This document shows positions 3,314 to 32,000 of a DNA stretch of 32,000 bases, in pieces. The number at the start of each line of letters is the position of its first letter. Position 1 is the first letter of the stretch. Origin of the DNA: Synechococcus sp. A15-24. Lineage in GTDB: Bacteria; Cyanobacteriota; Cyanobacteriia; PCC-6307; Cyanobiaceae. Position numbers and translations under genes: made by a program. The stretch is taken from positions 2,220,001-2,252,000 of the forward strand of contig NZ_CP047960.1 in assembly GCF_014280195.1 (NCBI RefSeq), read 5' to 3'. The notes beneath the pieces are model-generated. The model was given only the letters and a program-made list of their open reading frames with translations. It was not told the DNA's origin and did no database searches.

Positions 3314-5023
3314 ATGCCCTACCGCATCTCCCGCCAGGCCTACGCCGAGACCTACGGACCCACCACCGGCGACCGGGTTCGCCTGGCCGACACCGAGCTG
3401 ATCCTCGAAGTCGAGAAGGATTTCACCGTGTACGGCGACGAGGTGAAGTTCGGCGGCGGCAAGGTGATTCGCGATGGCATGGGCCAGTCCCAGACCCCTC
3501 GAGCCGAGGGCGCCGTCGACACGGTGATCACCAATGCTCTGATCCTGGATTGGTGGGGCATCGTCAAAGCCGATGTCGGACTGAAAGACGGCCGGATCGT
3601 GGGCATCGGCAAAGCCGGCAACCCCGACACCCAGGAAGGGGTGACCATCGTGGTGGGCCCCGGCACCGAGGCGATCGCTGGGGAAGGTCACATCCTCACG
3701 GCCGGTGGCATCGACACCCACATCCACTTCATCTGCCCCCAGCAGATCGAAACAGCTCTGGCCAGTGGCGTCACCACCCTGATGGGAGGCGGCACCGGAC
3801 CAGCCACCGGCACCAACGCCACCACCTGCACCCCCGGCGCCTTCCACATCGGGCGAATGCTCCAGGCAGCGGAAGGCCTGCCGGTGAATCTGGGCTTCTT
3901 CGGCAAGGGCAACGCCAGCACCCCTGAAGCCCTGGAAGAACAGGTGCGCGCCGGCGCCTGCGGCTTGAAGCTGCATGAAGACTGGGGCACCACACCGGCA
4001 ACGATCGATGCCTGCCTGTCGGTGGCCGACCGGATGGATGTGCAGGTGTGCATCCACACCGACACCTTGAATGAAGCCGGCTTCGTGGAAGACACGATCG
4101 CCGCCATCAAGGGACGCACCATTCACACCTTCCACACCGAAGGTGCCGGCGGCGGCCATGCACCGGACATCATCAAGATCTGCGGCAAAGCGAATGTGCT
4201 GCCAAGCAGCACCAACCCCACCCGGCCCTACACCCGCAACACGCTTGAGGAGCACCTCGACATGCTGATGGTGTGCCACCACCTCGATCCGAAGATCCCG
4301 GAAGACGTGGCTTTTGCCGAATCGCGGATTCGCCGCGAAACGATCGCCGCCGAAGACATCCTTCACGACCTGGGCGCCTTCTCGATCATCGCCAGCGACT
4401 CCCAGGCCATGGGGCGCGTGGGCGAAGTGATCACCCGCACCTTCCAGACCGCCCACAAGATGAAGGTGCAGCGCGGTGCACTGCCGGAAGACTCCAACCG
4501 CAATGACAACCATCGGCTGAAGCGCTACATCGCCAAGGTGACAATCAACCCCGCTCTTGCCCATGGCATCAGCAGCGAGGTGGGCTCGATCGAAACCGGC
4601 AAGCTCGCCGATCTCGTGCTGTGGAAGCCGGGCTTCTTCGGCATTCGCCCGGAACTAGTGGTGAAGGGCGGTTCGATCGTCTGGGCCCAGATGGGCGATG
4701 CGAACGCCTCGATCCCAACCCCCGGCCCCGTGCACGGCCGGCCGATGTTCGGCGCCTTCGGCAAAGCCCTCGCCCCCAGTTGTCTCACCTTCGTGAGCGA
4801 AGCGGCGATGGATGCCGACATCCAATCAAAACTCAGGCTTGACCGCACTTGCATGGCGGTGAAGGACACCCGCAGCGTGGGCAAGAGCGCCCTCAAGCTG
4901 AATGCAGCGCTGCCCAAGGTGAGCGTGGACCCGCAGACCTATGAGGTGTTCGCCGACGGTGAACTGCTCACCTGCGAGCCCGCTGAGGTGCTGCCCCTGG
5001 CCCAGCGCTATCTGTTGCTGTAA
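3314..5023 (+). CDS. ureC: Urease alpha (catalytic) subunit UreC
   Basis: 569 aa. Contains the Ni-site and flap motifs [38 protein letters not shown] and MLMVCHHLD. Starts 3 nt after the ureB stop. Confidence 0.97.
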
Positions 5024-5127
5024 TGCAGAGGACACCGCAAGGTTTTCTTATTCACCAATTCAATAGAAAAGTCAAGTTGGTATCACCATGAACGACATTC
5101 AAGAATTCCGTCTCTGCATAATTAATT

Positions 5128-5143
5128 TGTAGCAACTGCTACA
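5128..5143 (+). promoter_or_regulatory. Candidate NtcA binding site, perfect TGTA-N8-TACA (TGTAGCAACTGCTACA)
   Basis: Read directly in the AT-rich spacer after ureC. The site centre is ~92 nt upstream of the ATG at 5227. The expected -10 element ~22-24 nt downstream is only TAAGGC (5167-5172), which is imperfect. Confidence 0.55.
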
Positions 5144-5226
5144 GACGTTCACCTTGCCTCTCTCGGTAAGGCGCAGTTCGACTCAGGCCATGGAACGGGG
5201 ACCTGAGCTTGCTTCGAGGAACCACC

Positions 5227-5394
5227 ATGACGACTCTTCTCTACAGAGGTCACGCCTACCAGCAGGTCAAAGACGCTGCTCAACAGCAGAGCGTGCAACT
5301 CACCTACCGCCGCAACGTGTATCAAGCCCGCCAGGCTGATGTGCGTCAGGCCCGGGTTCAGCTCACCTACCGGGGTGTCAGCTACCTGCGCTGA
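5227..5394 (+). CDS. Small DUF4278-type repeat protein (55 aa)
   Basis: MTTLLYRGHAYQQVKDAAQQQSVQLTYRRNVYQARQADVRQARVQLTYRGVSYLR carries three copies of the L-x-YRG/R-x-x-Y module typical of cyanobacterial DUF4278 proteins. A GAGGA lies 7 nt upstream of the ATG at 5227. The track's 5209 start adds 6 residues. Confidence 0.7.
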   Translation: MTTLLYRGHAYQQVKDAAQQQSVQLTYRRNVYQARQADVRQARVQLTYRGVSYLR

Positions 5395-5405
5395 AAACCG
5401 CTTCT

Positions 5406-6080
5406 TCAGGCGACAAGCCGGTTGAGCATGGGCAATTCCAGCAGTTCATCGCGCCACTGCTGAGCCCATCGATCCTGGCTGCGTTCGTAGAGCTCCATCA
5501 GCTCCTCGACAGCACCGGCACGGTAGTCAACGCGAAGGTCCAGCAATGGAAATGCCGCTTCGCCGCTCACCTGCAGAGCGGCGGAGGTGCAGCTTGGTGA
5601 ACGTTGGTCGCCACCAGCCTGCTCTCCTGCCAGCAGGGCAGTCATCAAACGATGGCCCAGTTTCCAGTTGGGATCACTGGTGAGAAACGTCTGTTCCATC
5701 GCCTCCAGCACCACTTCGCCAGCCAGGCAGTTACCCGCAACCGAAAGGTTGGGATGATGCCGATGACCGGCCCATCCGCCGCACTCAACTCCAGTCCAGC
5801 AAGCCGTGCGCCCATCAAGATCGATCAGATGGAACTGGCGCCAATCCCGTTGGGGGTCATCCAGCAGAAGGCTGTTCAGCACATCCTGCGCATCCGCATG
5901 CTGTTCAAGACGCTCCAGTCCGCAAATTCCCAGATAAGGATTGGTGTGAGCTTGGGTTGCGACGGCACCAACTCCAGATCGGATGTGGGGAACAGTGGAG
6001 CCCACGGCCAGGTGACAGGTCGCTACGGCAACGCCGAAACGACCGTTGTTGGGATCTCGCGCCAGGATTGAAAAGGTCAA
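5406..6080 (-). CDS. DUF1028 family protein (Ntn-hydrolase fold, predicted amidohydrolase)
   Basis: (M)TFSILARDPNNGRFGVAVATCHLAVGSTVPHIRSGVGAVATQAHTNPYLG... matches the conserved DUF1028 N-terminus. I place the start at TTG 6080..6078, which overlaps the upstream stop as cTTGAcc and yields Met-Thr. The track's longer ORF (to 6140) would overlap the upstream gene by 64 nt. Confidence 0.75.
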   Translation of the reverse strand: MTFSILARDPNNGRFGVAVATCHLAVGSTVPHIRSGVGAVATQAHTNPYLGICGLERLEQHADAQDVLNSLLLDDPQRDWRQFHLIDLDGRTACWTGVECGGWAGHRHHPNLSVAGNCLAGEVVLEAMEQTFLTSDPNWKLGHRLMTALLAGEQAGGDQRSPSCTSAALQVSGEAAFPLLDLRVDYRAGAVEELMELYERSQDRWAQQWRDELLELPMLNRLVA

Positions 6081-7393
6081 GACAGCTCGAGATCCAAACG
6101 CTGCAGCGTCCCCAGCAAGACGGCAGCCCCAGCCCAGCACTGCTCGTCACTGGTGAATTCCTTGGCTGAGTGGCTGAGCCCACCACGGCTGGGGACGAAG
6201 ATCATTCCCATCGGCCAGCGACGCCCGATCTCCTGAGCATCGTGACTGGCACGGCTGGGGAGGTGGCTATGCGACAACCCCAGATCCTCTGCAGCAGAGA
6301 CGATCGCTGCCATCACTCCATCCGCTGCAGCTGTGGGTTCCACCTCAAATTGCGGTTCCAACTGGATTGGGCATCCGGTTTCGGCACCGATTCGCTCCAC
6401 CTGCTGCATCAACTCAGCCACCAACTGATCGAGCACAACTGAGTTCACATCCCGAAGGTCAACGGTCAGTGCCACTGAGCCCGGCACCACATTGGCGGCG
6501 TTGGGCCAGACCTCGAGTCGACCAACTGTGGCAACGGGATCGCCCGGGTGCTGTCGTGCCATCGTCTCCACTGCCAGCACGATCCGAGACGCCGCCACCA
6601 GAGCGTCCTGCCGCAGGGTCATCGGCGTGGTGCCGGCGTGGTTCGGCTGACCATCCACCTGGATGCTGAAACGGCGTTGTCCCACAACGCCCTCCACCAC
6701 ACCGATGTCGTCACCGCGTTGCTCGAGCACGCCTCCCTGTTCCACATGAAGCTCAAGAAAAGCAGCACACGCATCGTCCGCCCGACGCGCTGAGGCCAAC
6801 GATGGCCAGTGGCCACCGATACGAGCGAGATTGTCCTCGATCGGTTCCCGATTGCTGGTGGCATAGGCCTTGGGGTCACAGGAAGCCGTTCCGGCCATGC
6901 CCTTGCACCCAACCATCGTCGATTCCTCATCGGCGAAGGCGATCAACTCGAGATCGTGCTGAAGACAAATGCTGTTGTCCTGCAAGGAGCGACAGACTTC
7001 AAGACCTGCCAGAACCCCCAACACACCGTCAAAGCGCCCACCGGTGGGAACGGTGTCGAGGTGGGAACCGGTCATCAGTGCTGGGCGATCCGGATCCAAC
7101 CCCTGAAGCCGACCGATCAGGTTGCCCACCGTATCGATCCGAACCTGAAGACCAGCCTCGTTCATCCATCGGGCCAGCAAGGCACGTCCCGCAACGTCCT
7201 CAGTCGAGAAACCCCGTCGACAGACGCTGCCATCGGGCTGCAGCCCAATGGCAGCCATTTCAGCCAAGGATTGCATCAGACGCTCACGGTTGGGTCGAAT
7301 GCCCACCTGTGCGTTCGACCGAGCAGTGACCTGGCATGTGGTCAGGAGGGACGGCAATGCAGTGGCCTTCAGATCAAAAGATCTTTTCACCAT
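6077..7393 (-). CDS. M20-family amidohydrolase of the carbamoylase / allantoate amidohydrolase / beta-ureidopropionase type
   Basis: 438 aa. Contains ...LMTGSHLDTVPTGGRFDGVLGVLAGLEV... and ...QPNHAGTTPM..., signatures of the hydantoinase/carbamoylase amidase family. The exact start is uncertain. Confidence 0.8.
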   Translation of the reverse strand: MVKRSFDLKATALPSLLTTCQVTARSNAQVGIRPNRERLMQSLAEMAAIGLQPDGSVCRRGFSTEDVAGRALLARWMNEAGLQVRIDTVGNLIGRLQGLDPDRPALMTGSHLDTVPTGGRFDGVLGVLAGLEVCRSLQDNSICLQHDLELIAFADEESTMVGCKGMAGTASCDPKAYATSNREPIEDNLARIGGHWPSLASARRADDACAAFLELHVEQGGVLEQRGDDIGVVEGVVGQRRFSIQVDGQPNHAGTTPMTLRQDALVAASRIVLAVETMARQHPGDPVATVGRLEVWPNAANVVPGSVALTVDLRDVNSVVLDQLVAELMQQVERIGAETGCPIQLEPQFEVEPTAAADGVMAAIVSAAEDLGLSHSHLPSRASHDAQEIGRRWPMGMIFVPSRGGLSHSAKEFTSDEQCWAGAAVLLGTLQRLDLELS

Positions 7394-7452
7394 CGCCGCA
7401 GCGACCCAAACGGCCTGTCGTCAATGCGACGTTTTAACCCTCACCAAAGAAT

Positions 7453-9477
7453 TCAAACGGGCATCAGCACCCGCCACCCGAGGCGATCAGCCTGCTCGCG
7501 AGCCTGGGCTGGCACATCGGCCGCTACAAACATCCGATGCAGCATCTGGACACCCAGGAGGTGGTTGATGACGGCGTCCATCTGAACCCGCTCGGCGTCG
7601 GTAGTGGCAGGGTCGTCGTGGCGCGCAAACAAGGCACTAACGCCCTCTTTGCTCAACAACCCAGCCGCATCAATCGCTTCATCACTCAGGTAATCATCAG
7701 CCAACTGCTTCATCTGCGCCCACTTCTCGGGCTCCGTGTGGGCCGGGGGCGCCATGAAGGCAAATTTTTCGCGCTTGTAGAGCACCTCCGGCAGTAGGCC
7801 CGCCATGGCCTCCCGCAGCACATATTTCTCAGTTTTCCCCTTGATCCGCAGCTCTGGAGGCACCTGAACCGCCGCGGCCGCCAGATGGTGATCCAGGAAA
7901 GCCGGCCGTGCCTCCATGGAGTTGGCCATGTCGACGCGATCACCTCCCCAGGTGAGGATCTGGCCTTCCAACATCGTTTTGATCCAGACGTACTGAGCCT
8001 TGTCGAGGGCATGGCGACCATCGAGTTGCTGGGGATTCAACTGCTCAGCAATGGCCTTACCTGGCGAGTACTCCACCAACGCCTGACGGTGCTCGTCAGC
8101 CAGCAGATCCGGCACCAGCGGCGCGCAGGCCAGCCAAGGCTGCAGACAGCTGGGGGTGAAGCCCACCACGGCATCAAGATCGGGATCATCCACCTGATCG
8201 GCCGCCAGCATCGCTCCCTGCACCAGCGAATTGTTGGTCTGCAGCAGAGACTCCCAATCCTGGCGATCGTTCTGCGGCAGTGCCTCCAGACCATGGAGGA
8301 ACATGTCACGCCGAAACGCGGGATAGCCACCAAACAGCTCGTCTGACCCTTCCCCGGTCATCACGACTTTGTAGTCGACACTGTTGACATGGCGACTCAT
8401 CAAGTATTTGGCCACAGCCAAGGTGTTGTAAATCGTGCGCTCGGTGTGCCAGAGCGTTTGTTCCATGTGGCCGTACAACTCACGACCCGACAGACGCATG
8501 ACGTCCTGCTCGGCACCGGTGGCCTCCGCCATCTCGGCAGCAATGGGTGTTTCGTCGTAGCGCGCATCATCGAAGCCGATCGTGAAGGCCTTGACGGGAC
8601 CCTGACTCACCGCCGACGCAAGACCGAGGATCGAACAACTGTCGATGCCGCCTGAGAGGTAACAACCCACGGGCACGTCGGCCACCATCCGCATCTCCAC
8701 CGCTTCCAGCAAAGCAGCACGAACATTGGCGATGTGATCAGCCTCCGTGAGGGTGCTGTCCCGCTGATCCAAACGTGGAAAATCGACATCCCAGTAGGTC
8801 GACTTCGACACCTCCAGCCGGTCACCCCTGCGCTGCACCTTCAGCACATGACCGGGCTGAACCTGGTGCACCCCGGCGAAGGCGGTAGTTCCCGGGACCA
8901 TGGTCTGCATCAACTGATGAAAAAGACCCTCCGACGTGAAACGTCGCTCCACGGCCGGGTGAGCAAACAGCACCTTCAACTCGGAGCCGAACACCAACCC
9001 CTCCGGCGTCATCGTCCAGTACTGGGGCTTGATGCCGAAGCGATCCCTCACCAAATAGAGACAGTCATCCGCCGCATCAAACAGCGCAAAGGCGAATTCC
9101 CCCCGCAGCAAAGGCAACGTGGACTCGAGACCCTGCCGTTGATACAGGCGCAGCAAAATCTCGGAATCACTCTTCGAGGAGAAACGCACCCCCTGGGCGG
9201 TGAGATCAGCTCGGATGCGCTGAAAGTCGTAGAACTCGCCGTTGTGCGCCATCAGCACCTGACGGTCGTTGCTGAGAAACGGCTGACGTGCCCGGGATTC
9301 GTTCAAATCAATGATCGACAAGCGGGCATGACAGAAGCCGACACCGGCTGCGTCGAGGCATTCCACACCGAAACCATCCGGTCCGCGATGGGACTGGATG
9401 GCCGCCATGTTGACCAACAGCTGGCGATCCAACGTCTGATGACGATCCGCCAGAAACACACCTCCGATTCCGCACAT
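7453..9477 (-). CDS. Asparagine synthase (glutamine-hydrolysing)-type amidotransferase, long form (674 aa)
   Basis: MCGIGGVF... provides the Cys2 Ntn nucleophile. Also has HRGPDG, SDSEILL, and the PP-loop CYLSGGIDSC. The start lies 9 nt after the upstream stop, with GAGG spanning that stop. Confidence 0.85.
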   Translation of the reverse strand: MCGIGGVFLADRHQTLDRQLLVNMAAIQSHRGPDGFGVECLDAAGVGFCHARLSIIDLNESRARQPFLSNDRQVLMAHNGEFYDFQRIRADLTAQGVRFSSKSDSEILLRLYQRQGLESTLPLLRGEFAFALFDAADDCLYLVRDRFGIKPQYWTMTPEGLVFGSELKVLFAHPAVERRFTSEGLFHQLMQTMVPGTTAFAGVHQVQPGHVLKVQRRGDRLEVSKSTYWDVDFPRLDQRDSTLTEADHIANVRAALLEAVEMRMVADVPVGCYLSGGIDSCSILGLASAVSQGPVKAFTIGFDDARYDETPIAAEMAEATGAEQDVMRLSGRELYGHMEQTLWHTERTIYNTLAVAKYLMSRHVNSVDYKVVMTGEGSDELFGGYPAFRRDMFLHGLEALPQNDRQDWESLLQTNNSLVQGAMLAADQVDDPDLDAVVGFTPSCLQPWLACAPLVPDLLADEHRQALVEYSPGKAIAEQLNPQQLDGRHALDKAQYVWIKTMLEGQILTWGGDRVDMANSMEARPAFLDHHLAAAAVQVPPELRIKGKTEKYVLREAMAGLLPEVLYKREKFAFMAPPAHTEPEKWAQMKQLADDYLSDEAIDAAGLLSKEGVSALFARHDDPATTDAERVQMDAVINHLLGVQMLHRMFVAADVPAQAREQADRLGWRVLMPV

Positions 9478-9486
9478 CAGTTCGCC

Positions 9487-10701
9487 TCAGATCACATCCA
9501 TCACTCGCTCGGCACGGTTCACCATGCAAGTGAGCAGTGCCATGCGCAGAAACACCGCCCCACGCGCCTGGCTGAAATACCAGTTGTGCGGCGTCTCATC
9601 AAGACAGGTGCTCAGCTCGGAACCCCGGGCCAAGGGATGCAGCACGATCGCCTCCGGCTTGAACGGCAGATCCCGGGTGAGACGAAATCCACCGCCGTGC
9701 ACCTCGTAGCTGTCGCCAACCCAGGCAATCGCATTGATGTAAACGACATCCAGATCGGGAATCTCAGCAGCCAGATCTGAACTGCAGCGGATGGACATCC
9801 CGCTTGCTTCCAGTTCCTCCAGCTGGCCTGGATCGAACAAAGGCGCTTCAGACTCCACCTCGGGCGCATGAATCACCACCACCTCCTCCAGGATCTGGGG
9901 GAATTTGCTGAGGATCCGCAGCAGCGAGCGCACGGTGCGCATCCGCGACGGCAAGCCGATCACCCCGATGCGGATCCGATCCTCCGGGGAGACCTCTTTC
10001 GAAGCAAGGCTTGGACGCCATTTGAACATCGTGTAGAGATCCGCCATCGCCTGTGTCGGATGCTCATCAATGCCGTTACCGGCATTGATGATCGGAATCC
10101 GCAGGGTGGAACTCATGGCGTACACGGCCTCCGGATTGCTGTCGCGAAGCACCACACAGTCGCCGTAGTTGTTGAACATGTGCGCCACGTCCTCGAGCGA
10201 CTCCCCCTTGGCGATGCCGGTGGTGCTGCGATCGGTGATGTTGATGGAATCACCGCCAAGACGATGCCAGGCGCTGTCGAAGGAGAGGCGTGTGCGCGTG
10301 CTGGGCTCGTAGAACGCGTTGATCAGGATCTTGCCGGTGAGCGGCGTGTTGTGCCGGCAGTAACGGTCTGGGTTGCTTTCGAATTTCGCCGCCAGTCGAA
10401 ACAGCTGGAGCAGGGTTTCAGCGCGAAATGCCTGAATCGACACCACGTGTTGATCGACGAGATCCACCAACGGCTCGCCGTCTTCAGCGATTGCGGCCAA
10501 AAGCTCCTGCGGCTGATTGTTGCCGAACACATCAGGACCCATCGGCTGGAAGCGGAGCGGCGCCGAAGCTTCCTCGATCACGGCTGTGCGGGGTTGTGCC
10601 ATAAGCAGTTGCATCAACACCCGATTTGCCAGATCGCGTGATGTGCCATGAATCACATCATCCTTCGCTAACAACGCACCAACACCCCTGGCCAGCTTCA
10701 A
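9487..10701 (-). CDS. Aspartate/ornithine carbamoyltransferase-family protein, PyrB-like paralog with N-terminal extension; second substrate unknown
   Basis: Contains YEPSTRTRLSF (the carbamoyl-phosphate STRTR motif), HPTQAMADL, VLHPLARG (equivalent to HPLPR) and TPHNWYFSQA. The start is uncertain: TTG 10701, GTG ~10656, or ATG 10614/10602. Confidence 0.75.
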   Translation of the reverse strand: MKLARGVGALLAKDDVIHGTSRDLANRVLMQLLMAQPRTAVIEEASAPLRFQPMGPDVFGNNQPQELLAAIAEDGEPLVDLVDQHVVSIQAFRAETLLQLFRLAAKFESNPDRYCRHNTPLTGKILINAFYEPSTRTRLSFDSAWHRLGGDSINITDRSTTGIAKGESLEDVAHMFNNYGDCVVLRDSNPEAVYAMSSTLRIPIINAGNGIDEHPTQAMADLYTMFKWRPSLASKEVSPEDRIRIGVIGLPSRMRTVRSLLRILSKFPQILEEVVVIHAPEVESEAPLFDPGQLEELEASGMSIRCSSDLAAEIPDLDVVYINAIAWVGDSYEVHGGGFRLTRDLPFKPEAIVLHPLARGSELSTCLDETPHNWYFSQARGAVFLRMALLTCMVNRAERVMDVI

Positions 10702-10778
10702 AGAAGTTCTTTATACAAATTTCTAGAAAATAGTTCGACTGAATACTAAATCCGCCACAAATTGTTCAGCTTGAACAT

Positions 10779-10925
10779 TCACCAGACGCGTCCATTGCGC
10801 CATTCGAACCACCAAATCACCAGCAACGCGAGCACAGAACAGACGAGCGCCACCTGGCTTCCCACCAGGACCAGACCGAACCAGTGTTGATCCACCAGAA
10901 CCGTGAACAGCAACGCATTGGCCAT
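10779..10925 (-). CDS. Unannotated 48-aa two-helix membrane micro-protein
   Basis: Below the track's length cutoff. MANALLFTVLVDQHWFGLVLVGSQVALVCSVLALLVIWWFEWRNGRVW. The ATG lies 5 nt after the symporter stop, and GAGGAGG falls inside the last symporter codons at ideal spacing. Third-codon positions are mostly G/C, as in neighbouring genes. Confidence 0.6.
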   Translation of the reverse strand: MANALLFTVLVDQHWFGLVLVGSQVALVCSVLALLVIWWFEWRNGRVW

Positions 10926-10930
10926 GGCGT

Positions 10931-12361
10931 TCACACCTCCTCTTGCAAAAGATTGAAATCAAACCCTTCCGGCTGCCAGCGGCTGCCCACCACCATCACG
11001 ACAGCCGAAACGGCTGCGGAGAACACCGCCGCGCAATAGGGAGCAATCAGAACGTAGGCCGACAGTCCCACGGCACTGCCGGCTGCCATGGCGACGATCG
11101 CTGCCCAACGATTGGCAGAAGACCAGTAGAGACCGCAAGCCACAGGCCAGACCGTGGAGGCCACCAACGCTCCGGTGAAGAACAGCACCGACGCCAACGA
11201 ATCCAGCCGCGGCCAGGACAGGGCCAGGGTGAGCACAGCCAGGCCAACCACCATCTGCCTGGCCGCCTGCTTGAGCTGTGCATCGCTCGCCTGGGGGCGC
11301 AGCAGACGGAAATAGACGTCTTCCGCCAGCAGATCCGCCGTGGACGCCAACAGCGAATCCAGGGTGGAAGTGAGTGACGCGAAGACCACCACAAACACCA
11401 GTGCCGCCCCACCCGCGCCGAGCAGATCCGCTGCCATCACAGGGAACACCATGTTCACCTGCTCCAGCGGCAGGTCCCTGGCGAGCGCAACCAGTCCGAT
11501 CGATCCCGTCACCAGGGGGACACTCATCCAGGCCAATCCCCCCAAGACAAACGAGGTCATCACCACACTGCGCCGGCTAGCGAACACCCGCGACCACCAG
11601 ATGTTGTTGTGAAAGACCTCACCCATCGAGAACAGAGCGGAATTCCAGGCGATCAGCAGACCAGCCGGAAGCAAGAGATCCAGCCGGTCAGGGTGCGCAC
11701 TGATCAAGCGGGCATGCACCTCCGGCATCGGGAACTGACGGAACGCCAGCACCGCCACCACCGCCAGCAACACCATGATCAGCAGCGACTGAATGAAATC
11801 GGTTCCGATCACGGCCCGCATGCCGCCGAACAGGGTATAGACGGTGGCGACGCCGATCACCACCACCATGCCCACGTGGTAATCGAAGCCGGAGAGCGCC
11901 TGAAGCAACAGACCGGCCCCCATGGCCTGGGTCATCAGAAAACCGAGGGTGTACACAGCGGTGATCACCATGAACACCCACCACGCCAGGCGCCCGTAAC
12001 GCAACCGGATGAAATCACCACTGGTGCGGCCATACGGCATCAGCTGCTTGATCCGCACGGCCAGCGGCGCGAACAGGATCAAGCCCAGACCGGCCAGGGC
12101 ATAACTGAACATGCCCCAAAGACCAGTCCTGTAGCCGAATTCCGGAGCCAGCAGTGTGGTGTTTCCTGTCACCCAGGAGGCCATCAGCGTGGCCGTGCTC
12201 AACGCCAACCCGATGTTGCGTCCGGCCAGCATGTAGTCGTCGGCATCTCCTTTACCGCGGCGGCCCCAGACGATCCCCAGGGCGATCCACAGCACGGAAA
12301 ACAATACAACCAGGGCCCAGGCGATGCCAGGCGCCAGAAATGGTGCGGCGTCAACGAGCAT
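10931..12361 (-). CDS. Sodium:solute symporter (SSS/SLC5) family transporter, substrate unknown
   Basis: ~476 aa polytopic membrane protein: MLVDAAPFLAPGIAWALVVLFSVLWIALGIVWGRRGKGDADDYMLAGRNIGLALSTATLMASWVTGNTTLL..., an SSS-typical N-terminal region. The start is either ATG 12361 or GTG 12379. Confidence 0.85.
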   Translation of the reverse strand: MLVDAAPFLAPGIAWALVVLFSVLWIALGIVWGRRGKGDADDYMLAGRNIGLALSTATLMASWVTGNTTLLAPEFGYRTGLWGMFSYALAGLGLILFAPLAVRIKQLMPYGRTSGDFIRLRYGRLAWWVFMVITAVYTLGFLMTQAMGAGLLLQALSGFDYHVGMVVVIGVATVYTLFGGMRAVIGTDFIQSLLIMVLLAVVAVLAFRQFPMPEVHARLISAHPDRLDLLLPAGLLIAWNSALFSMGEVFHNNIWWSRVFASRRSVVMTSFVLGGLAWMSVPLVTGSIGLVALARDLPLEQVNMVFPVMAADLLGAGGAALVFVVVFASLTSTLDSLLASTADLLAEDVYFRLLRPQASDAQLKQAARQMVVGLAVLTLALSWPRLDSLASVLFFTGALVASTVWPVACGLYWSSANRWAAIVAMAAGSAVGLSAYVLIAPYCAAVFSAAVSAVVMVVGSRWQPEGFDFNLLQEEV

Positions 12362-12476
12362 CGACCGACCCCCGATCACGCCAGTGCAGATGGCCCTGAA
12401 TGATCATCGCCACCGTTGCCAGGGTCACCGCAGCACCGAGGGCAAAGATCAGTCCAGCCCAGAGATTGTCATCCAA
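12351..12476 (-). CDS. Unannotated 41-aa single-helix membrane micro-protein (possible symporter small accessory subunit)
   Basis: Below the track cutoff. (TTG)DDNLWAGLIFALGAAVTLATVAMIIQGHLHWRDRGSVDAR. GAGGAG lies 7 nt upstream of the TTG. The stop overlaps the symporter's 5' end by 11 nt. Confidence 0.45.
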   Translation of the reverse strand: MDDNLWAGLIFALGAAVTLATVAMIIQGHLHWRDRGSVDAR

Positions 12477-12609
12477 AGCGAATCTCCTCTTCAGCAGATC
12501 TCAGACAAGCAAATCGCGGTGTTCGCGAGCTTGCATTCACGGATAAGAAGTCGCTGGCGCTACCCAAATCACAGGCTGTCAGTGCACTGATGCCTTCAAT
12601 CTCGAAATG

Positions 12610-12625
12610 TGTAGCAATCACAACC
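12610..12625. promoter_or_regulatory. NtcA-like half-consensus site TGTAGCAATCACAACC (GTA-N8-AAC)
   Basis: Lies in the divergent region between the symporter operon and the ATP-grasp gene. Shares the GTAGCAA left half with the sites at 5129 and 18334. The right half is degenerate and I found no convincing -10 element. Confidence 0.3.
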
Positions 12626-12674
12626 CGCGGGGCCCTGATCGAGTTTTTGGATGCGCCTATTCATCGTTCAGGCA

Positions 12675-14147
12675 ATGTTCACCGAGTACCGACCAACCCA
12701 TGGGTACGACGAATATTTTTGCCGTGAACAGTCCGCTCCCCGCGCTGATCTGGAGCCGCTGCTGTCCTCTCTTGGAGCCATGGGGCTGGCGGAACTGAAT
12801 CGCAGTCATGCATCAGCGAGCAATCTGTTGCGACGCCTTGGCGCCACCTTCCGACTCAACGGATCAGGTCTGCATGGCGGAGAGCGGATCCTTCCCTTCG
12901 ATCCACTGCCAAGACTCATTCACCGTCAGGAATGGTCCAATCTGGAACGCGGATTGGTGCAACGCCTGGAGGCTATTGATCAGTTTCTGGCGGACGTTTA
13001 TGGACCCCAACGGATCCTCAACGATGGCGTGATCCCCCGTGAGGATGTGGAGAGCTCCCAGGGCTGGCGGCCCCAGATGCAAGACATCGCCGTGCCGCTC
13101 AACCGCTGGTGCCACATCTCAGGAGTAGATCTGATCCGCGATGGCGACGGCACCTGGAGGGTTCTGGAGGACAACCTGCGCTGCCCCTCCGGCGTGGCTT
13201 ATTTCCTTGAGAACCGTCGGGTGATGAAGCGGTTGTTCCCCAGCCTGTTCCAAGGGCGAACCGTGCAGCCTATCGACGATTACCCCTCCCATCTCTTGCG
13301 CACGTTGCAGGATCTGGCCCCTTGGAGTGATGCTCCACGGGTGGTGCTGCTCACCCCCGGCGTGTTCAACAGCGCCTACTTCGAGCACAGCTATCTGGCC
13401 CAGCAGATGGGCATTGCCCTGGTGGAAGGCCGCGATCTGATCTGTGAGGACGGACGCGTCTGGATGCGCAGCACGGCCGGTCGGGAACCTGTGGATGTGA
13501 TCTACAGGCGCATCGATGACGATTTCCTCGATCCGAACGTGTTCCGACGCGATTCGATGCTTGGTGTCCCTGGCCTCATCGATGCCATGCGCTCCGGTCG
13601 GGTGGCCATCGCCAACGCCCCTGGGGGCGGTGTCGCCGACGACAAGCTGATCTATGCCTACGTGCCGGCCATGATCCGTTACTACCTCAACGAAGAACCG
13701 ATCATCGACAACGTCCCCACCTATCTCTGCTCAAGGGACGACGACCGCCGTTATGTGCTCGAACATCTCAACAAACTGGTGGTGAAATCAGTCGCCGAGG
13801 CAGGCGGCTACGGAATGTTGATCGGGCCCCACGCCAGCTCTGAGGAGATTGAGAGCTTCGCGGTGAAGATCAAAGCTCACCCGCGCAATTTCATCGCCCA
13901 GCCCACGCTGCAGTTATCCACAGTTCCATCCCTCAGCGAAGGGGAGCTGTACCCCTGCCATGTGGATCTGCGCCCCTACGTGCTCCGGGGTAAGAGCGAC
14001 TGGGTCAGCCCCGGCGGCTTGACTCGTGTAGCCCTGAAACGCGGTTCCCTTGTGGTGAACTCCTCCCAGGGGGGCGGCTGCAAGGACACCTGGGTGGTCA
14101 GCGACAGCGCTGTAACGGCTGACAATCAGGAGCTCGTGCCGTGCTGA
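12675..14147 (+). CDS. Circularly permuted type-2 ATP-grasp protein (COG2308 / DUF404-DUF407 type)
   Basis: MFTEYRPTHGYDEYF... through ...GVPGLIDAMRSGRVAIANAPGGGVADDKLIYAYVP... and ...LVVKSVAEAGGYGMLIGP..., a family-typical sequence and length (~490 aa). The track start at 12651 adds 8 residues. Confidence 0.85.
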   Translation: MFTEYRPTHGYDEYFCREQSAPRADLEPLLSSLGAMGLAELNRSHASASNLLRRLGATFRLNGSGLHGGERILPFDPLPRLIHRQEWSNLERGLVQRLEAIDQFLADVYGPQRILNDGVIPREDVESSQGWRPQMQDIAVPLNRWCHISGVDLIRDGDGTWRVLEDNLRCPSGVAYFLENRRVMKRLFPSLFQGRTVQPIDDYPSHLLRTLQDLAPWSDAPRVVLLTPGVFNSAYFEHSYLAQQMGIALVEGRDLICEDGRVWMRSTAGREPVDVIYRRIDDDFLDPNVFRRDSMLGVPGLIDAMRSGRVAIANAPGGGVADDKLIYAYVPAMIRYYLNEEPIIDNVPTYLCSRDDDRRYVLEHLNKLVVKSVAEAGGYGMLIGPHASSEEIESFAVKIKAHPRNFIAQPTLQLSTVPSLSEGELYPCHVDLRPYVLRGKSDWVSPGGLTRVALKRGSLVVNSSQGGGCKDTWVVSDSAVTADNQELVPC

Positions 14148-15124
14148 GCCGTGTGGCCGATTCGCTGTACTGGATCAACCGGTATGTCGAGCGGGCCGAA
14201 AACATCTCCCGGTTTCTGGAAGTGAGCGAAGCAATGGCCCTGGATTGCCCCCCGGGCAGCGCTGAGCCCTGGCTTCCGCTAGTGGATGCCAATGGGGACC
14301 GCAAGCGTTTTGACGAGGCCTATCCTCAGGGCACACCACGGGACGTCGTCAGCTTTTTGCTGCTGGATCGCGACAACCCCAACAGCATCGTGAGTTGCAT
14401 CGCCAACGCCCGTGAGAACGCTCGCCAAATCCGCGATGTGATCACCACGGAAATGTGGGAGCAGCTCAATGACCTCTATTGGAACGTTCAAGACGGTGAG
14501 GCGCTCTGGCAGGAGCCGGATCAAGAACAGCTGCGCAGCATCCGACGCGGATGTCAGCTCTTCTACGGCATCACAGACGTGACCCTCAGTCGTGATCAAG
14601 CCTGGCTGTTCAGCCAGCTGGGACAGCTGATCGAACGGGCGGACAAAACCTCCCGCATCCTCGATGTGAAGTACTTCCTGCTGTTGCCAACGCCAACGGA
14701 GGTGGGCGGCGTTCTCGATGAATTGCAGTGGATCTCACTGCTTCGAACAGCTGGGGCTTATCAGATGTATCGCCAGAGCGTGCAGCAGGCGATCACACCA
14801 GCATCAGTGGCACGATTCCTGCTCCTGGATCAGATCTTTCCCCGTTCGGTTCGCTTCTGCCTGCAACAGATCAACGAGACGCTGCAACGCATTCAGACGA
14901 AACCCCACGCCGGCCCACCGGATGACCTGGAATGCCTGGGCGGTCAGTTGCTGGCCCAATGGAGCTACGTCCGCATTGACGCTCTGATCGAACGTGGACT
15001 GCATGAGGCCATCGATCAACTGCAAAGCGATCTGAACAGGATGCATGGCCTCATCCACCGCTGCTACTTCACCACCACCGACCTGGGCTCCATCCCCACC
15101 GACCCGTCATGCGCGCTGAGCTGA
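14141..15124 (+). CDS. Alpha-E domain protein (COG2307 / DUF403)
   Basis: The GTG start gives MLSRVADSLYWINRYVERAENISRF..., the hallmark alpha-E N-terminus. Overlaps the ATP-grasp stop by 7 nt. Confidence 0.85.
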   Translation: MLSRVADSLYWINRYVERAENISRFLEVSEAMALDCPPGSAEPWLPLVDANGDRKRFDEAYPQGTPRDVVSFLLLDRDNPNSIVSCIANARENARQIRDVITTEMWEQLNDLYWNVQDGEALWQEPDQEQLRSIRRGCQLFYGITDVTLSRDQAWLFSQLGQLIERADKTSRILDVKYFLLLPTPTEVGGVLDELQWISLLRTAGAYQMYRQSVQQAITPASVARFLLLDQIFPRSVRFCLQQINETLQRIQTKPHAGPPDDLECLGGQLLAQWSYVRIDALIERGLHEAIDQLQSDLNRMHGLIHRCYFTTTDLGSIPTDPSCALS

Positions 15125-16008
15125 CCCATTGCCTCACGTACCGCTACGAGGCTCCGGTGCAGCTCGGAGAACACCGCCTCTGTCTGCGGCCCCGGGCCCA
15201 GGGTCATCAACGGCTGATCCACCACACACTGCAGATCACACCGGAACCCTTCCACAGCCATGAGCTGTTGGCCGCCAGTGGCGATGCGATCGAACGCGTG
15301 CGCTTCCGAGGTTGCACCGATTTGCTGCAGCTCGAAGCCAGGAGCTTGGTGGAAACCCGGCAAGCCGCACCGCTGCTCACGTGTTTCAACGGACTTGAAC
15401 CCTCGCTTCCCTATCCGCGCGGTCTGCTGAACCACGACCTGCTGGGGGCTCTGGAAGGGTGGCTGCCCAACGGTCAACACGACCCCTCCGCTGTGGAACT
15501 GGCGCAGGACGCTCTGATGGGAAGCAATCAGCAGGTGCTGCCTTTTCTCCAGCAACTGATGGAGATGATCCAGGACCGGGTCAAGTACACCCAGCGCCAT
15601 GTGGGCCCAGCCTGGCCAGCAGGCCGGACTCTGCGGGAGCGTGTGGGCTCATGCCGTGATCTGGCGATGCTGATGATGGAGTGCTGCCGCAGCGTGGGGC
15701 TGCCGGCTCGGTTTGTGAGTGGTTACCACCTGGCCGAACCAGCACCTGAGACCTACAACCTGCACGCCTGGACCGAGATTTATCTGCCAGGTGCCGGCTG
15801 GCGCGGTTTTGATCCCAGTGCTGGTGGTGAAATCAGCTCGCGATACATCGTGCTCGCCAGTTCCTCCAAACCGGATCTCAGTGCTGCGGTTCAGGGAAGC
15901 TTTACAGGACCCCCAGCAACAACAAGCCACCTCAGCTGGACCATTGACGCAGATGTCGAACCCCGACCGGTCGCCTCGTCCAGCCAAACCATGGTTCAGG
16001 CCGCCTGA
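15109..16008 (+). CDS. Transglutaminase-fold family protein (COG1305) with N-terminal Bact_transglu_N-like region
   Basis: MRAELTHCLTYRYEAPVQLGEHRLCLRPR... plus the catalytic core ...GSCRDLAMLMMECCRSVGLPARFVSGY...HAWTEIYLPGAGWRGFDPS, which supplies the Cys/His/Asp triad context. Overlaps the alpha-E gene by 16 nt. Confidence 0.85.
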   Translation: MRAELTHCLTYRYEAPVQLGEHRLCLRPRAQGHQRLIHHTLQITPEPFHSHELLAASGDAIERVRFRGCTDLLQLEARSLVETRQAAPLLTCFNGLEPSLPYPRGLLNHDLLGALEGWLPNGQHDPSAVELAQDALMGSNQQVLPFLQQLMEMIQDRVKYTQRHVGPAWPAGRTLRERVGSCRDLAMLMMECCRSVGLPARFVSGYHLAEPAPETYNLHAWTEIYLPGAGWRGFDPSAGGEISSRYIVLASSSKPDLSAAVQGSFTGPPATTSHLSWTIDADVEPRPVASSSQTMVQAA

Positions 16009-30155: not shown

Positions 30156-30715
30156 CGAGAAGTAATGACCTGGGGTAAGTACATGGCACCTCGCCAACAA
30201 AACGAACGTGCATCATTGGAAAGTCGTTTCTACCGGGCACAGACACGTCGGCGCTTTGACCTAAGCTCTACATTAATTGAATTTAAGAGTCCAAGTATGC
30301 GCAAAAGGGCAAAGCCGTACGACAAGAGTTACAGACGGCAATACGAGCGGAATCGTAATTCCATCAACAGAACAACTTTTGAGTACGAACTAGAAAAGGA
30401 CGTAGCCGCTTAGAAGCCGGTTTGGCAAATGATCTGTTCGGGAGCTGCCCGCATGCTGAACAGAGTTTTACATCAGATTTAAATCTATAAAATGAATAGC
30501 ATAGATCGCACAGGAAAAAGAATATAAAATCAACAGGGAAGCTGGGAGTCTAAAAAACCAACATTGTGCTAATATATTTCTTAAGTAGCTCGAGAAATCG
30601 AAGGTTACTTCACTATCGCACGCTTTCATTATTACGTAGCGACAAAGGTCCCCGGGCCGATTAAACTGATCTACTACATTTTTTGATCGATCAGTCCGCC
30701 CTATTTTCATGAATC

Positions 30716-32000
30716 ATGACCATCAAAAACCAAATCAACCCCTACTTCGCAGAAAAAAAATTGAATAAGATTGAAAAAAGTAAGTTGGAAAAAGATGGGC
30801 TTTTAGTAGGAAGCGAAATCGAAAAGTTTGCAAAAATTGGGTGGGAAAATATGGATGAAACCGATTTAAAACTCCGTCTGAAATGGTATGGAATGTTCTG
30901 GCGTCCGAAAACACCCGGAAAATTCATGCTAAGACTTAGAATACCAAATGGTGTATTGACATCCAATCAAATACGAGTTGTAGCTTCAATAGTTGAACGT
31001 TATGGAGAAAATGGAAGCTGCGACATCACCACAAGGCAAAACCTGCAACTTAGAGGAATACTATTATGCGATCTTCCCGAGATCCTTAGAAGACTGCGTG
31101 AAGCCGGACTAAGTAGCGTCCAGTCGGGCTTTGATAATCCACGAAACGTAACCGGCAATCCACTCGCAGGAATAGATCCGAACGAAATCGTCGATACGAG
31201 ACCTTACACAACTAAATTGCAGAACTTTCTCACAAATAATTGTGAGGGAAATTCGGAATATTCCAACCTACCGAGAAAATGGAACACAGCAGTCGCAGGG
31301 TCTAAAGACAATTTCCTTCTTCACAACGACATAGTGTTTCATCCCGTTGAGAATAACGGCGTGATGGGTTTTAGCATCTGGATTGGAGGGATTTTATCTC
31401 CACAGATGAACGCATATGCATTTCCCATGAATGTATGGGTATTACCTGACGAGATCTGCAACATTTTGGATACTGTGATTCGTCTCTGGAGAGACAATGG
31501 AGAAAGAGAAAAGAGAACCAAAGGACGTTTCCGCATGTATCTCGATGAGATAGGGCACGAAGAATTCCGCAGCCAAGTGGAAAAACTGTACGGAACACTC
31601 ACTCCCGATCCAGGCTCAATATTCGAAAACTCTCCACGCTCTCACTTCGGCATTAATCAGCAGAAACAAGCCGGACTTTATTTTGCTGGCATACACGTGC
31701 CGGTCGGTCGCCTCACGGCAGAGGATCTACAAGATATCGCAACAGCGAGTCTCAAATATGGAAATGGAGAAATTAGACTCACAGAAGACCAAAATATAAT
31801 TATCACAGGTCTTACGAGTGAAAAAGTTGAAGAATTAAAGACTGATACATTAATGCAGCGTTTCCCCCTAGCACCTAGCAATATTTCAGCAGGAACAGTG
31901 TCCTGCACGGGAAATACGTACTGTAGTTTTGCGCTTACCAACACTAAAGACCAAGCCTTAAAAGCAGCAAAGGAACTTGACGAGGAGTTGAACCTACCTG
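30716..32000 (+). CDS. nirA: Ferredoxin-nitrite reductase NirA (3' end cut by window edge; 428 codons present)
   Basis: Absent from the ORF track. My translation from ATG 30716 (an in-frame TGA lies two codons upstream, at 30710-30712) stays open to the window end: MTIKNQINPYFAEKKLNKIEKSKLEKDGLLVGSEIEKFAKIGWENMDETDLKLRLKWYGMFWRPKTPGKFMLRLRIPNGVLTSNQIRVVASIVERYGENGSCDITTRQNLQLRGI...NPRNVTGNPLAGID...GTVSCTGNTYCSFAL... The last stretch is the siroheme/4Fe-4S Cys motif. Confidence 0.92.
   Translation, partial: MTIKNQINPYFAEKKLNKIEKSKLEKDGLLVGSEIEKFAKIGWENMDETDLKLRLKWYGMFWRPKTPGKFMLRLRIPNGVLTSNQIRVVASIVERYGENGSCDITTRQNLQLRGILLCDLPEILRRLREAGLSSVQSGFDNPRNVTGNPLAGIDPNEIVDTRPYTTKLQNFLTNNCEGNSEYSNLPRKWNTAVAGSKDNFLLHNDIVFHPVENNGVMGFSIWIGGILSPQMNAYAFPMNVWVLPDEICNILDTVIRLWRDNGEREKRTKGRFRMYLDEIGHEEFRSQVEKLYGTLTPDPGSIFENSPRSHFGINQQKQAGLYFAGIHVPVGRLTAEDLQDIATASLKYGNGEIRLTEDQNIIITGLTSEKVEELKTDTLMQRFPLAPSNISAGTVSCTGNTYCSFALTNTKDQALKAAKELDEELNLP

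Follow-up and report, generated by a model that had tools for sequence, protein, structure and literature searches.

The DNA analysed here (the window) was the whole stretch of 32,000 nucleotides (nt) of Synechococcus sp. A15-24 from position 2,220,001 to 2,252,000 of contig NZ_CP047960.1. On its reverse strand, the genes for a Na+/solute symporter of the SSF family, a transcarbamylase and an AsnB-type glutamine-dependent amidotransferase lie one behind another and are followed by those for an M20 amidohydrolase and a DUF1028 protein (Table 1). The transcarbamylase was found to belong to the branch of aspartate transcarbamylase (ATCase) and to have lost the residues by which the side chain of aspartate is held, and it is tentatively placed here at the head of a two-enzyme route in which an amino acid would be carbamoylated and then amidated.

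Two Pfam domains were detected above the gathering score in the maximal open reading frame (ORF) of the transcarbamylase, namely OTCace_N (PF02729) at residues 84-225 (E 2.9e-40, 138 bits) and OTCace (PF00185) at residues 243-392 (E 2.6e-12, 47.5 bits). With both of these domains and the SxRT and HPxQ motifs present, the protein is a member of the aspartate/ornithine carbamoyltransferase superfamily. Met34 was taken as the start of the coding sequence (CDS), because the public homologues are 355-375 amino acids (aa) long, the cyanobacterial ones starting at the Met34 equivalent, and the upstream DNA, a spacer of 140-170 nt, showed no conservation across four cyanobacterial loci. A leader RNA or a longer N-terminus before the gene was rejected because of the same lack of conservation. 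In a MAFFT alignment of 47 family members with E. coli PyrB (sequence confirmed to be identical to PDB 1q95_A), His52 was paired with His8 of PyrB, which gives an N-terminal extension of ~44 residues in place of the 90-100 extra residues assumed in the original prediction. The extension is conserved in the family as F.R..PDVYG..P..LL..I.E.G and is partly helical in the AlphaFold2 model.

In E. coli ATCase, carbamoyl phosphate is bound by S52, T53, R54, T55, R105, H134 and Q137, Lys84 is contributed by the neighbouring chain, the alpha-carboxylate of aspartate is bound by R167 and its beta-carboxylate by R229 and Q231, and P268 is the cis-proline of the HPLPR motif. The carbamoyl-phosphate ligands, together with K84, L267 and R269 (E. 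coli numbering), were invariant in the 47 aligned members, and the R167 equivalent was retained in 46 of them. The R229 position was occupied by Ala in 44 members and by Ser in 3, and the Q231 position by Ala (42), Ser (3), Thr (1) or Val (1). Trp was present at the K232 position in 46/47, residues E233-R234-L235 of E. coli PyrB were deleted, which shortens the 240s loop by three residues, and P268 was replaced by Ala in 47/47, so that HPLPR is read as HPLAR. The same register was obtained with HMMER against the ATCases of Arabidopsis and M. jannaschii, in which 'dvvyinaiaw' was paired with 'dvvyqtriqre' and 'dvlyvtriqke', respectively. In a second sample of 83 homologues from species-representative genomes, PSTRTR, HPTQ and HPLAR were each found in all 83, and the 240s loop followed INAI(S/A)W(E/V/K)G (YINAIAWVG in the window protein). 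Cyanobacterial and gammaproteobacterial members are 60-68% identical. As judged from these alignments, the residue pattern is a fixed and strongly constrained family trait, neither a chance event nor a sequencing error.

The distribution of the family was determined by a scan of about 185,000 genomes, one per species, and relatives of the transcarbamylase were found in 458 of them. The best 80 of these 458 matches include Idiomarina, Pseudidiomarina, Aliidiomarina, Kangiella, Pleionea, Ketobacter, Pseudoalteromonas, Bowmanella and related gammaproteobacteria, and these 80 come from marine or saline habitats. Matches in protein databases added picocyanobacteria, to which the window itself belongs (identity up to 99%), as well as Thiothrix, Sedimenticola and a metagenome-assembled genome of an alphaproteobacterium. 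Synteny was compared by a tblastn table and by ORF clustering in 83 proteobacterial loci and the window (84 sequences), and up to 88 loci were covered overall. The order symporter, transcarbamylase, amidotransferase on the same strand was found in 83/83 loci and in the window, the symporter gene (40-50% identity) being directly upstream and the amidotransferase gene (~670 aa) directly downstream of the transcarbamylase gene in 84/84 sequences; in the window, 9 nt separate the stop of the transcarbamylase gene from the start of the amidotransferase gene. The pyr genes never adjoined the transcarbamylase gene in the 88 loci. The cyanobacterial module has the order symporter, peptide, transcarbamylase, amidotransferase, M20 and DUF1028, and it was seen in three unrelated flanking contexts, so that it travels as a unit. 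The module also surrounds a member of a sister group that is only 44% identical (locus L090). In this locus, as in the cyanobacteria, transcarbamylase, amidotransferase and M20 genes follow one another on one strand with short gaps.

The fold was modelled by AlphaFold2 from the 47-sequence alignment (mean pLDDT 85, pTM 0.87), and the 50 best PDB matches to the model were all unknotted ATCases, with 28-34% identity and target-normalised TM-scores of 0.80-0.88. The nearest NCBIfam models were also those of ATCase, yet the scores fell below all four equivalog cutoffs, i.e. TIGR00670 (192.9 against 236.95), NF002032 (184.8 against 263), NF006046 (161.8 against 512) and NF008853 (151.9 against 560). 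The marks of the ornithine transcarbamylase (OTCase) branch, which are DxxxSMG, the TRWQ..G or putrescine transcarbamylase (PTCase) loop motifs and HCLP or HDLP, were absent from the protein, and the scores were 97-109 bits for the OTC models (cutoffs 281-306) and 70.6 for putrescine carbamoyltransferase (cutoff 500). For the knotted branch, which is marked by a proline-rich loop and an extended 120s loop and to which the protein does not belong, partial alignments of the N-domain alone were obtained, with 27-30 bits for YgeW (cutoffs 453-500) and 29.8 for N-acetylornithine transcarbamylase (AOTCase; cutoff 288).

A search of 1.84 billion cluster representatives yielded 275 sequences at E < 1e-30, and four groups were recognised by reading of the sequences and by a neighbour-joining tree. 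The canonical ATCases (34-40% identity), which retain RxQKER and HPLPR, lie outside a clade that is formed by the other three, namely the target family, a sister group (42-46% identity; P0124, P0126, P0131, P0134 and P0136, with P0127 similar) that keeps HPLAR and lacks RxQxER, and a third group (36-44% identity; P0130, P0138-P0152 and P0172) in which STRTR, K84, HPTQ and HPLxR are degenerate. In the third group, the N-terminal extension and 'KWRPEL' region of the target family recur, and the proteins of this group are apparently transcarbamylase homologues that are catalytically dead or re-purposed. The module was absent from the one third-group locus examined (L091, 594-1670, on a short contig), which gave no hint of function.

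The presence of such degenerate relatives in the same clade, with STRTR, K84 and HPLxR lost, points to a loss of catalysis nearby and would favour a reading of the window protein as a pseudoenzyme, that is a non-catalytic ligand binder by which the amidotransferase or the transporter is regulated or scaffolded. With the carbamoyl-phosphate ligands invariant in the aligned members and their three motifs in all 83 genome loci, this is regarded as highly improbable. An equally slight chance is given to a genuine but divergent ATCase (a second pyrB), in favour of which it may be said that ATCases account for all of its best matches among database sequences and structures and that public records name the family 'aspartate carbamoyltransferase' or give it a generic family name. 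Against it, the R229 and Q231 equivalents are replaced and P268 is changed to Ala throughout the family, all equivalog cutoffs are missed, the gene is never found in a pyr context and relatives occur in so few of the species genomes scanned. The mutations R229A and P268A each cripple the E. coli ATCase. Furthermore, ATCase was defined by FxExSTR and RxQxER in a 2015 family review (PMC4581275); the former was found as an invariant FYEPSTRTR and the latter was absent from the window protein and its family, so that the protein is not an ATCase by this definition. A further mark of PyrB, HPLP(R), was likewise replaced by HPLAR in the 83 homologues and present as HPLPR in the canonical relatives P0160-P0164.

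The original prediction had been made by eye, and its register proved correct in the HMMER and MAFFT alignments. Its statements that the carbamoyl-phosphate motifs STRTR, HPTQ and HPLAR are intact and that the equivalents of Arg229 and Gln231 are both Ala in the window protein were borne out by these alignments, and its suggestion of a second substrate other than aspartate is supported by the loss of RxQxER, the scores below cutoff, the clade separate from the canonical ATCases in the neighbour-joining tree and the synteny without pyr genes. A new subfamily is proposed from these features, the 'HPLAR / Y-x-N-[AS]-[IL]' transcarbamylases, whose genes are linked to those of an SSF symporter and of an amidotransferase of the AsnB type; the window protein has HPLAR, the RxQxER loss, the 'PDVYG..P..LL' extension and the symporter - transcarbamylase - amidotransferase synteny.

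The amidotransferase retains the Cys2 nucleophile of the glutaminase and the adenylation motifs, with SGGxDS as the pyrophosphate loop and GEGSDE as a further segment. The TTIR segment of AsnB has been implicated in aspartate activation, and it is read as NTLA in the amidotransferase, in a stretch of low-confidence alignment. The closest solved relative is a hydroxyamidotransferase and not an asparagine synthetase, and the NAGGN pathway model TIGR03104 scored 299 bits, under its cutoff of 570. In the cyanobacterium Aphanocapsa feldmannii, a sponge symbiont (L087, 9155-11284), two ORFs of 382 and 267 aa stand in place of the module's single AsnB-type gene; either the gene may have decayed to a pseudogene or the assembly may be wrong there.

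For the symporter, distant NCBIfam matches only were obtained, to PutP and PanF. Between its gene and that of the transcarbamylase, at least 42 of the 88 loci, from cyanobacteria, gammaproteobacteria and alphaproteobacteria, encode peptides of ~40-48 aa ending in (L/V/I)W-stop (homologues were also called in L003 and L089); this unannotated membrane peptide probably serves the SSF transporter as an accessory subunit. Immediately before the SSF gene, a second peptide, of 41 codons, is conserved in L084 and L086, which are both cyanobacterial, and in proteobacteria the same position is taken by a protein of ~141 aa with a signal peptide and a C-terminal transmembrane helix (80/83 loci), which resembles the 41-codon peptide.

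The top NCBIfam match of the M20 protein was ErtE, an N-carbamyl-L-glutamate amidohydrolase (427 bits, under the cutoff of 520), followed by NF006771 (406 bits, cutoff 399) and TIGR01879 (392 bits), and the best PDB match was 3n5f, an N-carbamoyl-L-amino acid hydrolase (E 1.8e-84). M20 adjoins the module in 32/83 loci by tblastn (30 were grouped by ORF clustering) and in every cyanobacterial locus whose flank was long enough. No M20 was found within 10 kb in 51/83 proteobacterial loci; the proteobacterial neighbours are of the same subfamily as the window M20 and, in gammaproteobacteria, often lie on the opposite strand. The TTG start of the DUF1028 gene overlaps the M20 stop by 4 nt (TTGA), and the N-terminus of the mature protein would be Thr (M-TFSILARD), as expected for an Ntn hydrolase. 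DUF1028 follows M20 in the cyanobacterial loci L084-L087 and in 0/83 proteobacterial loci.

Table 1 Coordinates of the features in the window and of the membrane peptide homologues in other loci
Feature	Position	Strand	Length	Remarks
Transcarbamylase, maximal ORF	9487..10701	-	404 codons	TTG opening
ATCase-branch transcarbamylase with non-aspartate pocket, probable CDS	9487..10602	-	371 aa	From Met34
AsnB-type glutamine-dependent amidotransferase	7453..9477	-	674 aa	Pfam GATase_6/7 and Asn_synthase; NCBIfam TIGR01536, 425 bits
Na+/solute symporter, SSF family	10931..12379	-		Pfam SSF, 1e-29; likely start ATG 12361
Single-pass membrane peptide	10779..10925	-	48 aa	Ends ...WRNGRVW; between symporter and transcarbamylase genes
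Homologous membrane peptide, L001	7885-8007
Homologous membrane peptide, L084	8714-8857
Homologous membrane peptide, L086	7631-7795
Homologous membrane peptide, L088	7888-8007
Homologous membrane peptide, L090	7882-8004
Membrane peptide, uncertain	12351..12476	-	41 codons	TTG start; overlaps symporter start
M20 amidohydrolase, hydantoinase/carbamoylase family, N-carbamoyl-amino-acid amidohydrolase type	6077..7393	-		NCBIfam and PDB matches
DUF1028 protein, Ntn-hydrolase-like	5406..6080	-		Pfam DUF1028, 1.1e-64; PDB match 2imh, hypothetical protein
Glutamine-II riboswitch	5143-5207	+		Rfam RF01704, 68.9 bits; directly after NtcA-type palindrome 5129-5142

On these data, the transcarbamylase is read as a putatively competent ATCase-branch enzyme for which aspartate is no longer a substrate and which may catalyse the first step of a two-enzyme route, with a probability of roughly 0.4; this value applies to the reading at the pathway level, the residue pattern, fold, clade and operon conservation having been observed directly. 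Carbamoyl phosphate would be bound in the usual way, and the alpha-carboxylate of the amino-acid substrate would be anchored by the equivalents of Arg167 and Lys84. As the clamp for the beta-carboxylate is replaced by Ala (Ser in some members), beside a near-invariant Trp and a shortened 240s loop, the pocket may suit an L-alpha-amino acid whose side chain is neutral or longer, with glutamine or glutamate as the favoured candidates. The alpha-amine would be carbamoylated by carbamoyl phosphate to give the N-carbamoyl amino acid, which would be passed to the AsnB-type amidotransferase for the glutamine-dependent conversion of its carboxylate to a carboxamide at the expense of ATP. The solute or its precursor would be taken up or recaptured by the symporter with the two small membrane partners. 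For breakdown, the product would be deamidated first by DUF1028 (in cyanobacteria) and then decarbamoylated by M20, and the opposite-strand M20 of many gammaproteobacteria is as expected of a breakdown gene under its own regulation. What we infer is which way the reaction runs, how its steps are ordered, which amino acid is used and what part the route plays in the cell. The marine or saline host range, the likeness to NAGGN synthesis and the glutamate-type affinity of M20 would fit such a route. The narrower proposal that the product is N-carbamoyl-glutamine amide, a solute so far known from one purple sulfur bacterium (Ectothiorhodospira marismortui), is doubtful at present; no biosynthetic genes were named in the papers retrieved on this solute (PMC1224877, PMC7824335).

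Several points weigh against carbamoylation followed by amidation. The favouring of Gln or Glu as the substrate is a guess from the residue changes and the similarity of M20. Ectothiorhodospira was not among the best 80 of the 458 genome matches, which is uninformative as to the producer. In cyanobacteria, the synthesis genes are directly followed on their own strand by M20 and DUF1028, the putative breakdown genes, and co-expression would carry the risk of a futile cycle. An importer that is linked in 100% of the loci is more typical of utilisation than of pure biosynthesis. A nitrogen-rich solute (4 N per molecule) would be odd for picocyanobacteria, which are often nitrogen-limited, and in the window the module is surrounded by a nitrogen-assimilation region with urease, narB, nitrate permease and molybdopterin genes. 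Lastly, Thiothrix nivea, a carrier of the module, is not marine.

The single-strand arrangement of transcarbamylase, amidotransferase and M20 genes with short gaps in cyanobacteria and L090, together with the M20/DUF1028 overlap, may also be read as that of a linear pathway in which the carbamoyl group gives transient protection, an imported or endogenous amino acid being N-carbamoylated, amidated at one carboxylate by the AsnB-type enzyme and deprotected by M20 to give a free amino-acid amide. The cyanobacterial gene order by itself suits such a route better. N-acetyl and N-succinyl protection in arginine and lysine biosynthesis provide a parallel, and a single operon argues for sequential action over opposing synthesis and breakdown. 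This is nevertheless considered unlikely, because M20 is missing near the module or lies on the opposite strand in many loci, so that the invariant core ends at the amidotransferase. Furthermore, L-carbamoylases normally need a free alpha-carboxylate, which would limit the amides that could be deprotected.

The obligatory importer and the nitrogen-assimilation setting, with urease adjoining the module in the window and in L084, speak in turn for a catabolic role, in which an imported ureido compound would be cleaved with phosphate to carbamoyl phosphate and an amine, so that metabolism would be supplied with nitrogen and carbamoyl phosphate. Such phosphorolysis is carried out by the catabolic OTCase and by putrescine transcarbamylase; a ureido-hydrolase neighbour is common here, and undiscovered catabolic members of the family were anticipated (PMC4581275). 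The role is judged improbable. Carbamate kinase was not among the recurrent neighbours of the 83 loci, as determined by similarity clustering and not by a Pfam scan, the always-linked, ATP-consuming and glutamine-hydrolysing amidotransferase is an anabolic feature, phosphorolysis and M20 hydrolysis of one ureido group would be redundant, and a canonical NtcA palindrome was not found upstream of the symporter gene.

MarR-type regulators, which accompany the module in 47 of the 83 loci by ORF clustering, would suit a specialised metabolite rather than an osmolyte. In that case a side-chain or other non-alpha amine would be carbamoylated, such as that of a diamino, beta- or gamma-amino acid or of an amide-bearing intermediate formed beforehand by the AsnB-type enzyme, as 2,3-diaminopropionate and 2,4-diaminobutyrate are used by known non-canonical members in antibiotic pathways according to the 2015 review (PMC4581275). 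These enzymes belong to the OTCase branch and have another loop motif, whereas the window protein is of the ATCase branch and keeps R167 and K84. In addition, no recurrence of nonribosomal peptide synthetase, polyketide synthase or tailoring genes near the module was found by ORF clustering of the 83 loci, and carbamoylation of a non-alpha amine is held to be quite improbable as well.

The wider window was scanned for regulatory elements. The only GTA-N8-TAC of the window, GTAGCAACTGCTAC at 5129-5142 (+), is a perfect NtcA-type palindrome that lies with the riboswitch between ureC and the DUF1028 gene. The two form a separate nitrogen-sensing unit of a known kind (5129-5207), by which a small downstream ORF is presumably controlled. 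Promoter and terminator sites in 5000-12700 were no commoner than in shuffled sequence. An Rfam match to 5_ureB_sRNA (166 bits) at 3469-3755 (-), antisense within the gene for the urease alpha-subunit, most likely reflects conserved coding sequence and not a small RNA gene. At 12651-16008 (+), divergent from the symporter gene, a conserved trio of circularly permuted ATP-grasp, alpha-E domain and transglutaminase-like proteins is encoded, which also flanks the module in L084 and L085. At 30200-32000, the GC content falls from about 0.63 to 0.44 and no ORF of more than 88 aa, tRNA or Rfam match was found; this part, on the border of the nitrogen-assimilation region, is possibly an insertion of foreign or non-coding DNA.

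A search of the literature on biosynthesis of carbamoyl-glutamine (amide), glutamine transcarbamylase, DUF1028 and Idiomarina with carbamoyltransferase gave no description of the family, its combination of motifs or the module, and neither HPLAR, nor a Synechococcus member, nor an asparagine-synthetase partner is mentioned in the 2015 family review (PMC4581275). The finding is a new specificity variant in a well-known enzyme family, inside a widespread and undescribed operon; the kind of system itself is not new. Mis-annotation is routine among transcarbamylases, and by recognition of the family false pyrB calls would be averted in at least 458 species. For enzymology, a tractable two-enzyme pathway is defined. 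If carbamoylation followed by amidation is correct and the product is an N-carbamoyl amino-acid amide, genes would be provided for an orphan osmolyte and a nitrogen-rich solute would be added to the chemistry of marine bacteria and picocyanobacteria. If it is the glutamine amide, the enzyme would be the first natural glutamine/glutamate transcarbamylase, and the solute would have hundreds of producers among marine gammaproteobacteria, with coastal picocyanobacteria besides. A natural enzyme for compounds of the N-carbamoyl-glutamate type could also come from the family; N-carbamylglutamate is a drug, and an enzyme for such compounds was named as an engineering goal in the 2015 review (PMC4581275).

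Compared with known systems, the family has the same two-domain fold as the catalytic chain of ATCase (PyrB; E. coli 1q95/1d09, P. abyssi 1ml4, Arabidopsis 6yw9; 28-34% identity, target-normalised TM-scores of 0.81-0.88), and FxExSTRTR, R105, HPTQ, K84, R167, L267 and R269 are common to both. It differs from ATCase by R229 to A, Q231 to A/S, K232 to W, P268 to A and a 240s loop shorter by three residues, and by the conserved extension of ~44 residues and an insertion around 'KWRPEL'. The long ATCase paralogue of the Burkholderia type (~430 aa; NF008853 / PRK11891) is likewise an N-terminally extended member of the ATCase branch of unknown role, but it keeps RxQxER and HPLP (PMC4581275), which are both lacking in the window protein, and the alignment to its model leaves the extensions uncovered. 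The putrescine, N-acetyl/N-succinyl-ornithine, YgeW, 2,3-diaminopropionate, 2,4-diaminobutyrate and ureidoglycine transcarbamylases follow the same logic, i.e. a conserved carbamoyl-phosphate site with an altered loop for the second substrate. With the exception of the ureidoglycine enzyme, all of these are members of the OTCase or knotted branch, with scores of 27-71 bits for the window protein against cutoffs of 288-500, and an AsnB-type partner has been reported for none of them. In the NAGGN osmolyte pathway (Ngg, the AsnO amidotransferase and a peptidase), an N-acetylated glutamine dipeptide is amidated by an AsnB-type, glutamine-dependent enzyme. There the N-blocking is done by acetylation, a dipeptide is made and neither a transcarbamylase nor a symporter is involved, whereas the AsnB-type amidation of an N-blocked glutamine derivative and the linkage to a hydrolase gene would be the likeness of that pathway to the present one, as a mechanistic analogy.

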